A stretch of DNA of 64,000 bases from Candidatus Omnitrophota bacterium (GTDB taxonomy: Bacteria; Omnitrophota; Gorgyraeia; Gygaellales; Profunditerraquicolaceae), in contig DAONDX010000003.1 in the NCBI GenBank assembly GCA_035402765.1, forward strand, positions 50,682 to 114,681. Direction: 5' to 3'. Numbering within the stretch: the first letter of the stretch is position 1; each line of letters opens with the position of its first letter. This document shows positions 5,181-46,786 of the stretch, piece after piece. The notes beneath the pieces are model-generated. The model was not told the DNA's origin. It made no database searches and saw only the letters and a program-made list of their open reading frames with translations. A program made the translations under genes and the position numbers.

Positions 5181-5200
5181 ATCGGCGCCCGTAGTAAATA

Positions 5201-5225
5201 AGCGGGTGATCGGAATCGAACCGAC
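5201..5225 (-). pseudogene. orphan 3' fragment of a Gly-like tRNA (T-arm and acceptor 3' strand, no 5' partner adjacent)
   Basis: The reverse complement GTCGGTTCGATTCCGATCACCCGCT shows a canonical T-loop TTCGATT and acceptor 3' strand CACCCGC. That strand matches the 5' acceptor GCGGGTG of the fragment at 5395-5429. Confidence 0.4.
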
Positions 5226-5299
5226 ATAATTGTTGCTTGTCCCGCCACCTCAGATTTTTCATGTACAGCGGGATACCGCCGCTATCTATTATAGTTCTA

Positions 5300-5394: not shown

Positions 5395-5429
5395 AGAAGG
5401 CTATTATTCTACCATTGAACTACACCCGC
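5395..5429 (-). pseudogene. 5' fragment (positions ~1-35) of a Gly-like tRNA immediately upstream of tRNA-Gly
   Basis: The reverse complement GCGGGTGTAGTTCAATGGTAGAATAATAGCCTTCT is near-identical to positions 1-35 of the adjacent tRNA-Gly, with 3-4 mismatches. It then diverges into CCCGCCGCTATC, which is inverted-repeated (GATAGCGGCGG) on the far side of tRNA-Gly. Confidence 0.5.
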
Positions 5430-5647: not shown

Positions 5648-5936
5648 TTAAGCCGACGAGAGGATTTGAACCCCCGACCCGCTACCAGAGGGGCTCTGCC
5701 CCTATGGCGCTCCTCACTAACGTTCGTCGCTGTTACCCCGAATCCGCGGGGGAAGTTTTCCCCCGCACCCCTTTCGGGTCGGACGTATATTTAAGCCGAC
5801 GAGAGGATTTGAACCCCCGACCCGCTACCAGAGGGGCTCTGCCCCTATGGCGCTCCTCACTAACGTTCGTCGCTGTTACCCCGAATCCGCGGGGGAAGTT
5901 TTCCCCCGCACCCCTTTCGGGTCGGACGTATATTTA
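5648..5936 (-). repeat. two perfect tandem 143-bp units directly 3' of tRNA-Thr; each unit is a ~75-nt conserved module fused to a copy of tRNA-Thr positions 41-73
   Basis: An exact period of 143 bp is seen by eye (TTAAGCCGACGAGAGG at 5648, 5791 and 5934). Each unit contains ...TTCGGGGTAACAGC...GCGCCATAGGGGCAGAGCCCCTCTGGTA followed by GCGGGTCGGGGGTTCAAATCCTCTCGTCGGCTTA on the minus strand. Confidence 0.8.
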
Positions 5937-11958: not shown

Positions 11959-12921
11959 TTAGTGCTTTAAAAAACGCAATATATTGCGGGTTTTTTGCAC
12001 GTAGATTCCCTTGGGTAAGTCTACTATTGCCCCTTCGGGACGAAGGTAAATTAAATCTTCCAATTCCTTGATATGCTGAAAAGTTATCCTGCGCGTATCC
12101 CCCTGGAGGCAAGCTATGCTTTGACGCAATTTAAGACGCAGGATCGCCGGATGTAATTTTGAGATTTTTTTAAGCTGGAGCCGTAAAGGATTGCCTTTTA
12201 CGCAGCGCCTGGCAACTTGATCTAAGTATTCATAATCGTAAGAGACACTTTCCGCCAGATTAGCCAGTACCTTTAACATATTAACATTATACTTGCTCGA
12301 AAGCAAAGGAATCAGGTGGTGGCGGATTTTATTACGTAAAAAAATATCTTCTTGATTAGTAGAATCATTGCGGGCTTTTACTGCGCGTTTCTTTAAGTAT
12401 GCGTTTATTTCCCGGCGAGTTGTTTCAAGAAATGGCCGGATAAAAACCACGCCCCGGATAGTTCTTTTAGGAGAAATTCCGGATAAGCCGGACAAACCCG
12501 TTCCCCGCAATAAACGCATGAGCACCGTTTCGGCCTGGTCATTAAGATTATGCCCCAAAGCGACTTTATGGGCCCGGACTGTTTTTGCGGTTTTAATGAA
12601 AAATTTCAATCTTTCTTCCCGGAAGAATTCTTCTAAAGAACCCTTGGCTTTAATCTGCTGGACCGGCAGCTGTTTTATGGTTACGGGAAGCTTAAGTTTG
12701 CGTCCCCATTTTTTTACAAAAAGCGCATCCAATTTTGAATCTTTGCGTAAACCATGATCTACATGCACGATATGCAAAGTTAAACCCAGCTTAAACTTCA
12801 GGCTGTAAATCTTCAAAAGTAACGCCAATGAGTCCGGGCCGCCGGAAACCGCCACCAGGATTCTGTCGCCTTTTTTGATCAAAGAATAACTATTAATTGT
12901 CTTAATAAAATTATCGGGCAT
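11959..12921 (-). CDS. tilS: tRNA(Ile)-lysidine synthetase
   Basis: 320 aa with the PP-loop SGGPDS, positioned upstream of ftsH as in many bacteria. Confidence 0.85.
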   Translation of the reverse strand: MPDNFIKTINSYSLIKKGDRILVAVSGGPDSLALLLKIYSLKFKLGLTLHIVHVDHGLRKDSKLDALFVKKWGRKLKLPVTIKQLPVQQIKAKGSLEEFFREERLKFFIKTAKTVRAHKVALGHNLNDQAETVLMRLLRGTGLSGLSGISPKRTIRGVVFIRPFLETTRREINAYLKKRAVKARNDSTNQEDIFLRNKIRHHLIPLLSSKYNVNMLKVLANLAESVSYDYEYLDQVARRCVKGNPLRLQLKKISKLHPAILRLKLRQSIACLQGDTRRITFQHIKELEDLIYLRPEGAIVDLPKGIYVQKTRNILRFLKH

Positions 12922-14735: not shown

Positions 14736-14768
14736 TTAAAAAAATAACCTCATTTTAAAATGAGGCGG
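14736..14768 (-). terminator. Rho-independent terminator downstream of dgkA
   Basis: On the minus strand the 7-bp perfect stem CCTCATT/AATGAGG with loop TTAA is followed by a U-run (UUAUUUUUUUAA). Confidence 0.6.
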
Positions 14769-14794: not shown

Positions 14795-15175
14795 TCATAT
14801 TTTTTTCAACAAAAGCACGTATCCCACTCCCAAAGCGTTTAAACAAGCCAGCAAAACTACGCCGGCGGCAATATCTTTAATCAGTTTAATCTTAACCTGA
14901 TACTCCTGGCTGAGCGCATCCATCATTAATTCGATCGCGGTATTGAATATCTCCGCCATAAAAACCAACGTAATCGTAATGCAGACGGCTACCAGCTCAA
15001 TACCTTTTAACTTCAGATAAATACCTGACAAAAATACCAGTACCCCTGAAATAAAAATCAGGCGCATGTTGCGGTGATAAAGGAATAAATAGATTATCCC
15101 CTTAACCGCTAAATTTAAGCTATTCATAAAGCCCCGGGTTTTAAAAATGTTCCTGAATGTATTATTTTTTACCAT
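14795..15175 (-). CDS. dgkA: diacylglycerol kinase / undecaprenol kinase family
   Basis: 126 aa with three transmembrane helices and the conserved motif AEIFNTAIE. Confidence 0.75.
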   Translation of the reverse strand: MVKNNTFRNIFKTRGFMNSLNLAVKGIIYLFLYHRNMRLIFISGVLVFLSGIYLKLKGIELVAVCITITLVFMAEIFNTAIELMMDALSQEYQVKIKLIKDIAAGVVLLACLNALGVGYVLLLKKI

Positions 15176-15226
15176 AGTATTTTATTAAAACATCGGAGGC
15201 CAAAGCAGCAAATATTCTAAAAAACT

Positions 15227-15302
15227 GGTGGCGGAGAGTGGATTTAAACCACCGACCAAGCGGGTATGAGCCGCGTGCTCTATCAGGCTGAGCTACTCCG
15301 CC
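15227..15302 (-). tRNA. tRNA-Met or tRNA-Ile2 (anticodon CAT), CCA encoded
   Basis: The reverse complement reads GGCGGAGTAGCTCAGCCTGATAGAGCACGCGGCTCATACCCGCTTGGTCGGTGGTTTAAATCCACTCTCCGCCACCA. G1 pairs with C72, so it is not a bacterial initiator. Confidence 0.8.
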
Positions 15303-15414
15303 AAATTTAAGTTTTCAAAGCTTCAATTTTTACTACACGCGGCTTGATTTTGGTATCAAGCCGCCAGATCGTTATCTTCTGCGGCGCAGTCCCTGAAGCC
15401 GCAGGCTTCAGGGG

Positions 15415-15449
15415 GAGCCGCGTGCTCTATCAGGCTGAGCTACTCCGCC
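15415..15449 (-). pseudogene. duplicated 5' fragment (positions 1-35) of the adjacent CAT tRNA, ~110 bp upstream of the intact gene
   Basis: GGCGGAGTAGCTCAGCCTGATAGAGCACGCGGCTC on the minus strand is identical to positions 1-35 of the tRNA at 15227-15302, then diverges into a perfect 10-bp hairpin CCCTGAAGCC-GCA-GGCTTCAGGG. Confidence 0.6.
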
Positions 15450-15479
15450 AAAATCGTTTTTAGATGACCAAGGATATGG

Positions 15480-16268
15480 CTATTTCTTGCGATAAGCGTT
15501 TAAATAAGAATCGCAATAAATATTCTTATTTAAAAGCAATTCTGCGGTAATTAACGTATCCATTAACTCTTTATCTTTAGGATCAAGTATAGCAGAATCT
15601 AAGCCGGATGCAACTGCCATTGTTAAAAATGTGCGGTTGAGCAGATTACGCTCCTGAGCCCCTTGAGAAACATTGCTTAAGCCAATAATGGTTTGCGGCC
15701 CGGGAAGCGACATAAGCTTAAATTCATGAATTGATTCCAGGATATCCCGGATTTGGCCTTGGGCCACATTGACCGGCATCAGGATCGGATCAAGATATAG
15801 GTCTTGCGCAGGAAATCCTTTTTCGCTGGCATGCATAAGAATCGTGGCCGCCAATTCCAGGCGTTGATCCTTATTTTGCGGAATACCTTTGGCGCTAATC
15901 GTTATCCCGATCAACTTGCATTTATATTTTTTAGCTAACGGGACAAGTATCTCCAGTTTTTCCGGGTCAGCCGTAGTAGAATTAATGATCGTTCTATTTT
16001 TAGCAGCTTTTAATCCTTCGGCGATCGCTTCAGGCTTGCTGGAATCCAGGCAAAGCGGTTTGTCGGTAACCTCCTGGACTGTTTCGACCAACCAAGGCAT
16101 ATCAACTAAAGAATTTCGGGAAGCCGGCCCGCAGCAAAGGTCTAAAGCATCCGCGCCCCCTTTGATCTGCTCCAGCGCACAAATCTGAATGGTTTTTTTA
16201 TCACGCTCTTTTAACGCTTGAGCGATATTTGAATACATTCCGTTAATTAATTCACCGATCACAAACAT
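15480..16268 (-). CDS. acsE: methyltetrahydrofolate:corrinoid/iron-sulfur protein methyltransferase (pterin-binding domain)
   Basis: 262 aa with a DHPS-like pterin-binding barrel, lying within a cluster of CFeSP genes. Confidence 0.7.
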   Translation of the reverse strand: MFVIGELINGMYSNIAQALKERDKKTIQICALEQIKGGADALDLCCGPASRNSLVDMPWLVETVQEVTDKPLCLDSSKPEAIAEGLKAAKNRTIINSTTADPEKLEILVPLAKKYKCKLIGITISAKGIPQNKDQRLELAATILMHASEKGFPAQDLYLDPILMPVNVAQGQIRDILESIHEFKLMSLPGPQTIIGLSNVSQGAQERNLLNRTFLTMAVASGLDSAILDPKDKELMDTLITAELLLNKNIYCDSYLNAYRKK

Positions 16269-44609: not shown

Positions 44610-44751
44610 AACTCCTCCTCATCTACCTAGACGACACCCGCGTAGAGTGCCCACTACTGTTTATAATATCTCCTCGATACTGCGTTAATCAACACACATT
44701 AAGTGCAATTTCAATTCACCCGGAGTGTCTTGAATTAATTTTTAATAAATA

Positions 44752-45154
44752 AAGCAGGCAGAATAAGCCGGGTTCTGTCTTGATGCCTGCCTGCCGGCAG
44801 GCAGGCGAATGCTACATCGCAGTGGCTATTCCTCTCAATTCCCGCGTTACCACGGGAACTTTAGCAGTTTACCCGAGATTGTTTTCCGTTGAAACGGAAA
44901 GCGCGCCGAATCAGCACTCATCTCCTATTCTACTTTGCTCCACGTAGAGATTGCCCGTTTCACCTCTCCGCTTGGAAGCGGATACTCGTCTCTGTGGCTC
45001 TCTTGCGCTTTTGGCGCAAGATCCCAAGGGATTATCCTCTTAGCGGTTTTCTCAAACCGCTAAGGACGGGAATTACCCGTTACGTTATTCTCCGGAGCCC
45101 GGACTTTCCTCCCGCCATTGAAACAATGACGGGCAGCCACATCCTGCCTGCTTA
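44752..45154 (-). ncRNA. rnpB: RNase P RNA (bacterial type A)
   Basis: The minus strand contains GGAGGAAAGTCCGGGCTCC (the universal P4 5' strand), ACAGAACCCGGCTTA (P4 3' strand), GGTAACGCGGG (the P10/11 region), and a terminal P1 helix AAGCAGGCAGG/CCTGCCTGCTT. Total length is ~403 nt. Confidence 0.8.
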
Positions 45155-46606: not shown

Positions 46607-46700
46607 TGGGCCCACAGGGACTCGAACCCCGGACCAATTACCAAAGGGGCTCTGCCCCTATGGCGCTTTGCTGTTACCCCGAAATCGTGGGGAAAAGTTT
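46607..46700 (-). repeat. single copy of the conserved ~75-nt module fused to a duplicate of positions 41-73 of the adjacent CAT tRNA (homologous to the units at 5648-5936)
   Basis: The minus strand reads ...CGATTTCGGGGTAACAGCAAAGCGCCATAGGGGCAGAGCCCCTTTGGTA followed by ATTGGTCCGGGGTTCGAGTCCCTGTGGGCCCA. The tRNA-derived part is identical to tRNA 46787-46860 positions 41-73. Confidence 0.6.
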
Positions 46701-46786
46701 AATTACCTTTATAGCTCCTTCGAGCTTGAACCTGGATAAATTCTTTAGGTATCGCTCGAAGTGAATTTTTACTTCGTAAAAATTCA

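Follow-up and report, generated by a model that had tools for sequence, protein, structure and literature searches.

A tandem-repeat unit carrying a tRNA-Met(CAU) 5' fragment and two hairpins at the acsE-tRNA-Met locus of Omnitrophota bacteria

The DNA analysed here, a 64-kb stretch of contig DAONDX010000003.1 from a Candidatus Omnitrophota bacterium (referred to throughout as the window), contains a tRNA-Met(CAU) gene, and the interval between this gene and the acsE-like gene upstream of it holds a unit of 147 nucleotides (nt) in which a copy of the 5' part of the tRNA is followed by two hairpins (Table 1). A repeat search returned a direct repeat of 38 nt with 100% identity (15268-15305 and 15415-15452) and a spacing of 147 nt, and a BLAST search of the tRNA against the window matched tRNA nt 1-35 to positions 15449-15415 with E = 3.9e-15. 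The interval from the fragment to the gene is 112 nt long and contains both hairpins. A preliminary description of this DNA had noted two perfect 10-bp hairpins behind an exact upstream copy of tRNA nt 1-35 on the transcribed strand; the copy is confirmed by the repeat and BLAST searches and the hairpins by an inverted-repeat search. Hairpin 1 takes the place of three expected parts of the pseudo-tRNA, namely its anticodon 3' strand, its variable loop and its T arm. The 5' arm of hairpin 2, referred to as box B, resembles the anticodon arm of the tRNA (GCGGCTCATACC) and holds a conserved TTGATA. Neither ARAGORN nor Rfam called a gene on the fragment.

Table 1. Features of the tRNA-Met(CAU) locus and of a comparable tRNA-Gly fragment, in positions of the window
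Feature	Position	Strand	Remarks
5' part of pseudo-tRNA	15415..15452	-	3 leader bases (TTT) + tRNA nt 1-35, 100% identical to the gene
Hairpin 1, CCCTGAAGCC-TGC-GGCTTCAGGG	15391..15413	-	Perfect 10-bp inverted repeat; arms 15391-15400 and 15404-15413; 3-nt loop
Box A, ACTGCGCCGC	15381..15390	-	Likely relic of the acceptor 3' strand; directly after hairpin 1
AT-rich linker, box A to box B	15365..15380	-	Sequence differs between species (alignments)
Hairpin 2, GCGGCTTGAT-ACCAAA-ATCAAGCCGC	15339..15364	-	Perfect 10-bp inverted repeat; arms 15339-15348 and 15355-15364; 6-nt loop
AT-rich tail, leader of the working tRNA	15303..15338	-	From the alignment of units
Working tRNA-Met(CAU) gene	15226..15302	-	77 nt, CCA encoded; ARAGORN; Rfam tRNA 59 bits
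acsE-like methyltransferase gene	15480..16268	-	Last gene of the upstream Wood-Ljungdahl cluster; Pfam Pterin_bind
Diacylglycerol-kinase-like (DAGK) gene	14795..15175	-	Downstream of tRNA-Met; Pfam DAGK_prokar, 1.5e-26
Pseudo-tRNA-Gly 5' fragment	5396-5429	-	Between tRNA-Tyr and tRNA-Gly; 31/34 identity, then directly TCCCGC

Perfect stems of at least 10 bp with a loop of 3-8 nt were found at four places in the window, namely hairpins 1 and 2, a site within the RNase P RNA and another behind tRNA-Met2. The count expected from first-order Markov simulations was 0.8 on average. The 150-nt unit folded at -58.6 kcal/mol, with z = -4.5 against shuffled sequences. An identical AcsE protein was present in eight independent contigs (NCBI, JGI, ENA), and in the five of these contigs whose intergenic region was read, one of them ending inside hairpin 2, the sequence was identical or differed by 1 base upstream of the fragment. 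As the independent contigs agree, the unit is real and fixed in the species and is not an assembly artefact.

The window was compared with 40 loci of related bacteria, designated by L-numbers. A homologous unit comprising fragment, hairpin 1, linker, hairpin 2 and tail was present in the window species and in L012, L013, L014, L015, L032, L033/L034 and L035, so that the unit lies between acsE and tRNA-Met in at least eight species-level lineages, in one to at least two tandem copies, some of them partial. An nhmmer profile of the spacer matched only acsE-tRNA-Met loci in the window and the 40 loci. Metagenomes were scanned for tRNA nt 16-35 followed by any base except A, a pattern that should catch any such 5' fragment irrespective of the sequence behind it, and the junction was found in five contigs only, each time right behind acsE and with a spacer of the same family.

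Two or more units stand in tandem in L033 (period 146 nt) and in L035 (period 144 nt). The acceptor strands of the two L035 copies differ (GGCACAG and GGCGGAG), so these are true copies and not an assembly loop. L034 has one unit and an upstream flank identical to that of L033. Partial spacers precede the first fragment in L012 (hairpin 2 and tail) and in L033/L034 (a hairpin-1-like stem and tail), and in L013 the tail sequence CTTGATAATTTAAATTG precedes it. In 14 relatives without the unit the tRNA begins 7-41 nt after the acsE stop codon. The fragment in the window begins 30 nt after the stop codon, inside that range, and the full gene follows one unit further on, which fits a clean loss of the unit by recombination between the repeats.

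The tRNA part of the unit is variable among these lineages. L013, L014, L032 and both L035 copies have the D arm GCTTGAGCC instead of GCTCAGCC, the L014 fragment has the 15-nt palindrome CCCTGCCGGTAGGCAGGG inserted in its D arm, and the acceptor strand of L035 unit 1 is altered at two positions. Fragments that match the gene exactly occur in the window, L012, L015 and L033/L034, and are interspersed with the variants on a neighbour-joining tree of AcsE (193 columns, unbootstrapped), on which unit-bearing and unit-less lineages are also intermixed in a patchy manner. The interspersion of identical and variant fragments points to gene conversion from the adjacent gene or to turnover of units. 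Judged from these sequences, the fragment itself appears not to be held by selection, and its identity to the gene in the window would reflect concerted evolution and not a recent event. Head-to-tail units beside the gene, change and loss of copies, and a decaying non-functional copy are all found at this locus, which is most simply read as an old tandem array that recombination between the 38-nt repeats enlarges, reduces or cleanly removes. The preliminary description had suggested a comparison with the syntenic locus of relatives and had considered an ancient structure fixed without variation; the arrangement is indeed common to relatives and thus old, but both its copy number and its sequence vary.

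The origin of the spacer was examined with an alignment of eight units. RNAalifold recovered both hairpins independently of the inverted-repeat search and in addition paired ACTGCGCCG (box A) with the acceptor 5' strand of the fragment, UGGCGG-AGU; 95% of the cells of this helix were paired, and it was invariant. The duplex of box A with the acceptor strand has an energy of -12.9 kcal/mol, which was reached by 100 of 2000 shuffles (5%). In a related unit downstream of the tRNA in L019, box A is represented by TCGCCGCC, which exactly matches the acceptor 3' strand found in the other tRNA-Met allele of this group, and the motif GGGAYTKCGCY adjoins tRNA-Met in the window species (5 contigs), L006, L019, L023, L029 and L034. 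Two tRNA-Met copies in L004, longer and degenerate, carry this module too, and in one of them box B runs straight into tRNA nt 36-57. The similarities of the L004 and L019 modules were reached by only 0-2 of 1000 shuffles. When hairpin 2 is set against the gene, GCGGCT-TG-ATAC...CCGC stands opposite GCGGCT-C-ATAC-CCGC.

On these grounds box A probably descends from the acceptor 3' strand, and the fragment, hairpin 1 and box A together are best read as one internally deleted pseudo-tRNA that has kept both acceptor strands; hairpin 2 would likewise be reworked tRNA material. Since an acceptor 3' strand relic follows the fragment, the boundary in the anticodon loop would be the edge of an internal deletion or replacement. 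A similar case is provided by the tRNA-Gly fragment of the window (Table 1), in which the TCCCGC directly behind the fragment is the acceptor 3' strand and roughly nt 35-64 of the pseudo-tRNA-Gly are deleted. This fragment too is an internally deleted pseudo-tRNA and not one half left by recombination. The likeness to the Gly locus drawn in the preliminary description thus stands as far as the presence of the fragment is concerned, and its recombination boundary gives way to an internal deletion because the acceptor 3' strand follows.

The unit is a locus-specific tandem repeat passed on by inheritance, with a copy number that varies and a tRNA part that decays, and neither a recombinase nor foreign DNA is associated with it. 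Taken together, we consider it reasonably probable that the tRNA-Met(CAU) gene and its inter-gene spacer were once duplicated in tandem and that the 147-nt unit is the decayed copy, and not a recombination scar. The pseudo-tRNA would have kept nt 1-35, with hairpin 1 replacing the middle and box A representing the diverged acceptor 3' strand, and the next ~75 nt would consist of hairpin 2, which looks like reworked tRNA, and the AT-rich leader of the working gene. The unit may have arisen in an ancestor of a group of Omnitrophota-like bacteria. Unequal or illegitimate recombination among its tandem copies may since have multiplied, truncated and removed units, and a crossover from one 38-nt repeat to the other would take out a unit cleanly. 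The 5' identity of the fragment would be kept by gene conversion or unit turnover and not by selection. The start as a tandem duplicate, the loss of the middle, the homogenisation by the neighbouring gene and the loss between repeats are in this sense inferred from the present state of the loci.

Several points weigh against a decayed tandem duplicate. The acceptor-like helix is invariant and so carries no covariation information, and within the window alone the box A duplex is weak, being equalled by the 100 of 2000 shuffles given above. The similarity of box B plus ATACC to tRNA nt 28-40 is not significant in the window alone (803 of 2000 shuffles), and it is through intermediate forms in L004, L009 and L019 that a tRNA origin of the spacer is supported. 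Copy numbers above one were seen only on contigs that end inside the array. The AcsE tree may not be the species tree, and horizontal spread of the unit is possible. The module of hairpin, box A and box B is conserved across deep divergence, which a plain pseudogene does not predict; tandem duplication also gives no origin for hairpin 1, and the promoter-like site described below fails the scan in the window itself.

Signs of constraint were found in the hairpins and the boxes. In the eight units 97.7% of the cells of hairpin 1 were paired, with three compensatory pairs and two sequence types, and unrelated hairpin sequences fill the position of hairpin 1 before box A in L004, L019 and L029-type units. 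For hairpin 2 the proportion was 87.5%, with no compensatory change, and its 10-bp stem is perfect only in the window species. A helix of box A with box B, which competes with hairpin 2, was 89% paired with two double changes. The TTGATA of hairpin 2 is present in 8/8 aligned units. In L032 it forms TTGATA-17 nt-TATAAT (11/12) and in L013 TTGATA-17 nt-AATAAT (10/12), both directed toward the tRNA and overlapping hairpin 2, and these are the only sigma-70-like sites in the region. The corresponding site at hairpin 2 was below the scan threshold in the window and in L034, and promoter scans upstream of the other tRNAs of the window gave no information. Behind the hairpins a T-run is absent on both strands, and a canonical intrinsic terminator lies nearby at 14747-14766; the hairpins are thus not canonical terminators, terminators being one of the roles that the preliminary description had proposed. 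For the attenuator that it had also suggested, alternative pairings exist on paper only, and the T-run read-out is missing after hairpin 2. In a search of Rfam 15 at gathering thresholds and at E up to 10 only the tRNA itself matched, the best other hits being YrlA with 15 bits (E = 2.4) and PreQ1-III with 12 bits. That hairpin 1 and box B with its TTGATA are kept for an action in cis on the working gene is speculative. Hairpin 1 could be a stable stem that ends the acs transcript or lies between the operon and the tRNA, insulating or stabilising, and the TTGATA of hairpin 2 could be the -35 box of a tRNA promoter.

These signs bear on an alternative in which the unit is a functional structured RNA or a cis-regulatory leader, transcribed with the acs operon or with the pre-tRNA and acting as a processing or punctuation signal, as an mRNA 3' stabiliser or as a pairing switch, with box A either on box B or, when hairpin 2 forms, on the anticodon 5' strand of the fragment (GCGGC). 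The three compensatory pairs in hairpin 1, the very different hairpins that stand before box A in L004, L019 and L029-type units, the conservation of both boxes from one distant lineage to another (0-2 of 1000 shuffles), the 89% pairing and two double changes of box A with box B in competition with hairpin 2, and the fold z-score of -4.5 all argue for such an RNA, as does the survival of the tRNA's initial 8-9 nt in copies that are otherwise strongly decayed. However, there is no Rfam match at E up to 10, the D arm of the fragment tolerates an indel and a 15-nt insertion, and the unit is dispensable, many close relatives having a tRNA that directly abuts acsE. The sample is small (8-11 sequences of two main types), palindromes can stay symmetric through processes at the DNA level, and after hairpin 2 the T-run that a classical attenuator would read out is missing. 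From the sequence comparisons we judge a leader RNA unlikely. Quite unlikely, in our estimate, is a lineage-specific functional element made of tRNA-Met parts and consisting of a variable hairpin, box A (ACTKCGCCGC), an AT-rich loop and box B (GGCGGCTTGA). One possible form of it would be a tRNA-mimicking leader or punctuation element that keeps the expression or processing of tRNA-Met apart from the acs operon by a switch between the box A:box B helix and hairpin 2; the other possible form would be a small module that inserts itself into tRNA copies at their 7-nt loops.

Insertion and mobile DNA were considered as well. The scar of an integrase was tried as an explanation and rejected on the 112-nt interval, which has no integrase and no foreign DNA, and on the occurrence of one family at one locus. 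Many independent junctions were rejected on the metagenome scan, whose five contigs belong to the same family and locus, and a dispersed repeat of the repetitive extragenic palindromic (REP) or miniature inverted-repeat transposable element (MITE) kind was rejected on one match in the window at up to 3 mismatches and none elsewhere in the 40 loci. Even with 3 mismatches allowed, neither hairpin 1 nor hairpin 2 has a second copy in the window. No integrase adjoins tRNA-Met or any other tRNA locus of the window, viral contigs gave 0 hits for the tRNA 5' half and for hairpin 2, and BLAST of the spacer against phages and plasmids gave short chance hits only. The Islander search for genomic islands relies on a terminal tRNA fragment in the orientation of the gene, an integrase gene in the interval and an interval of at least 2 kb (PMC4383910). 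The fragment studied here has the orientation and configuration of such an island (nt 1-35, 147 nt upstream, same strand), but the interval lacks the integrase, the size and the foreign content. This layout of a 5' fragment upstream in the same orientation would be accounted for if an integrative element bringing a tRNA 5' half with it had recombined in the anticodon loop and had later been deleted, with the hairpins as leftover integrase arm sites; islands with 5' fragments exist but are rare (159 versus 3760; PMC4383910), and an element shared by units before the 3' halves of two other tRNAs of the window, described below, implies some non-local process in the genome. Against it stand the missing integrase, the 112 nt as compared with the 2-kb minimum, the lack of matches in viral contigs, phages and plasmids, the single family and locus of all metagenome junctions, and tandem units of 144-147 nt, far below the size of an element. 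Moreover, the spacer module is shared with degenerate tRNA-Met copies (L004, L019), and box A is a probable acceptor relic, weak as it is in the window. The integrase-scar reading is therefore largely refuted and most improbable, and the recombinase arm sites that the preliminary description had seen in the hairpins go with it, there being no integrase, only 112 nt and no match to mobile DNA. Very unlikely, too, is a reading in which a small REP- or MITE-like palindrome entered the anticodon loop of a duplicate tRNA gene, after nt 35 and before nt 36; hairpin 1, with or without the linker, would then be foreign and the repeated GCGGCT a target duplication. GCGGCTC stands before the insert and GCGGCTTG followed by ATACC after it, the L004 module is directly followed by tRNA nt 36-57, and GC palindromes do enter RNA genes here, as shown by CCCTGCCGGTAGGCAGGG in the L014 D arm and CCTGCCTGCCGGCAGGCAGG in the RNase P RNA. 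But hairpins 1 and 2 occur once each in 64 kb, the spacer profile matches only at this locus, and terminal inverted repeats are absent; in L019 the same box B follows the module in a T-loop context, so that it looks like part of the module and not like a target duplication. The insertion would also leave the duplication of the fragment unexplained and could only be an added step within the decayed tandem duplicate that we favour.

The working tRNA-Met(CAU) gene is identical in sequence in most relatives. It may encode an elongator Met, an Ile2 or an initiator tRNA. It has a G1:C72 pair and a GC-rich anticodon stem, and a PP-loop (TilS-like) gene lies at 11959-12921, 2.3 kb from it. Its elbow is unusual, with the D loop AGCCTGATA, which has A at the expected G19, and the T loop TTTAAAT, which has T at the expected C56; from the sequence this could be a swap of G19:C56 for A19:U56. 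Upstream of the tRNA lies a Wood-Ljungdahl set consisting of RACo, CooC, CdhD/AcsD and the AcsE-like methyltransferase, and downstream of it are the DAGK-like gene, a PAS protein, a polysaccharide synthase and the PP-loop protein. No open reading frame of at least 40 amino acids was found between 15176 and 15479. The nearest relatives of the AcsE protein are from metagenome-assembled genomes of Omnitrophota, with identities of up to 82%, and in 29 of 30 related loci the neighbourhood is retained with tRNA-Met just downstream of acsE. The gene order is acsE, tRNA-Met, DAGK-like in the window and most other loci, and acsE, DAGK-like (with other genes), tRNA-Met in L004, L019, L023, L025-L027 and L029. 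The difference would be explained if tRNA copies once flanked the DAGK-like gene on both sides and some lineages lost one of them while others lost the other.

Other tRNA debris is present in the window and in the relatives. The tRNA-Thr gene is followed by two identical tandem units of 143 nt (5651-5936, minus strand), each ending with tRNA-Thr nt 41-73, and tRNA-Met2 by one unit of 180 nt (46607-46786, minus strand) ending with tRNA-Met2 nt 42-74. The Thr and Met2 units share an element of ~75 nt (AAACTTCCCCCGCGGATTCGGGGTAACAGC..AGCGCCATAGGGGCAGAGCCCCTNTGGT) directly 5' of the tRNA 3' half, with a score of 54 that was reached by 0 of 1000 shuffles. Local duplication does not explain this element, which occurs at two tRNAs 40 kb apart. 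An exact 21-mer of it gave 0 hits in viral contigs and a 14-mer gave 97 chance hits, none of them with the second half, and the element had no match in Rfam. Downstream of tRNA-Gly, at 5200-5235 on the minus strand, there is a stretch resembling a T arm and acceptor (GTCGGTTCGATTCCGATCACCCGCT) at the place of the fourth tRNA of the conserved bacterial Thr-Tyr-Gly-Thr cluster; ARAGORN and Rfam made no gene call there. The 20-nt palindrome CCTGCCTGCCGGCAGGCAGG lies at 44786-44805, inside the RNase P RNA gene (44748-45153), and is found in identical form in the trailing unit of tRNA-Met in L034 (1535-1554) and as variants in tRNA-Met pseudo-units of L004, L006 and L014, in the last case in the D arm of the fragment. 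It may be a small palindromic insertion that is spreading among structured-RNA genes.

Downstream of tRNA-Met, units of 52-70 nt occur in one to three tandem copies in L006, L007, L008, L010, L011, L013, L015, L016, L018, L021 and L032 and are absent from the window. They consist of (A)GAGAGGCAGTCC or a ..TAGGCAGTCC variant, a GC hairpin and the last 14-20 nt of the tRNA (CCACTCTCCGCCACCA), and the last downstream unit of L008 is a perfect long hairpin (AAGAGAGGCAGTCCTGCG..CGCAGGACTGCCTCTCTT). The terminator arm and the tRNA 3' strand have CTCTC in common, and the sequence suggests that these units were duplicated by way of this microhomology. In L019 (7642-7900) and L030 (524-580) the downstream 3' pieces belong to the other tRNA-Met allele than the resident gene, with CCAGTCGCCGCCACCA beside a GGCGGAG-type gene in L019 and the reverse in L030; the gene seems to have been replaced while the old debris stayed. 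Duplication of tRNA end-pieces has occurred repeatedly in this lineage. Of the repeated tRNA events proposed in the preliminary description, the recurring duplication of end-pieces thus holds, and the site-specific recombination at anticodon loops does not.

By analogy, the closest known case would be the repeats distal to the E. coli tyrT gene, which are reportedly 178 bp long and each start with the last ~19 nt of the tRNA. In both cases tandem direct repeats of a terminal tRNA piece plus spacer lie beside an intact gene and vary in copy number, and both arrays would have been made and resized by unequal or illegitimate recombination. Unlike at tyrT, the repeated piece comprises the first 35 nt of the tRNA and stands upstream of the gene, the copy is an internally rearranged pseudo-tRNA with both acceptor strands, and the unit is common, with decay, to at least eight species-level lineages. 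We know of no product of the unit such as the rtT RNA or Tpr of tyrT. Pseudogenes of tRNAs also occur in tandem tRNA arrays that evolve in concert. The locus resembles these in having a dead copy beside a working gene, identical in part and diverged in part, with variants mixed across relatives; it differs from them in a middle formed by a GC hairpin with compensatory changes and in spacer boxes that are conserved between distant lineages. The palindromic elements of Rickettsia are an example of small palindromes landing in RNA genes. As with these and with REP sequences, short perfect GC-rich palindromes lie here in or beside structured-RNA genes (the 20-nt palindrome of the window and L034), whereas hairpins 1 and 2 are single-copy in the sequence examined. 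Islander islands likewise combine an intact gene with a fragment in the same orientation and a boundary in the anticodon loop (Hudson et al. 2015, PMC4383910; Williams 2002), but the locus studied here has no integrase, an interval of 112 nt, no foreign DNA and units of ~145 nt at one locus. A literature search yielded nothing usable on a tRNA-fragment phenomenon of Omnitrophota or on tyrT repeats.

The unit is fairly ordinary, and its residual interest lies in the conserved module of hairpin and boxes. It also calls for caution, as a gene accompanied by a fragment that ends in the anticodon loop mimics the signature of an island, which here would come from local duplication, internal deletion and gene conversion. 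The tRNA genes of these bacteria are flanked by fast-changing arrays of their own end-pieces, which could serve as strain markers and may explain breaks in assembled contigs. If the module proves functional, it would be a case of tRNA debris reused as a cis signal beside a central carbon-fixation operon.

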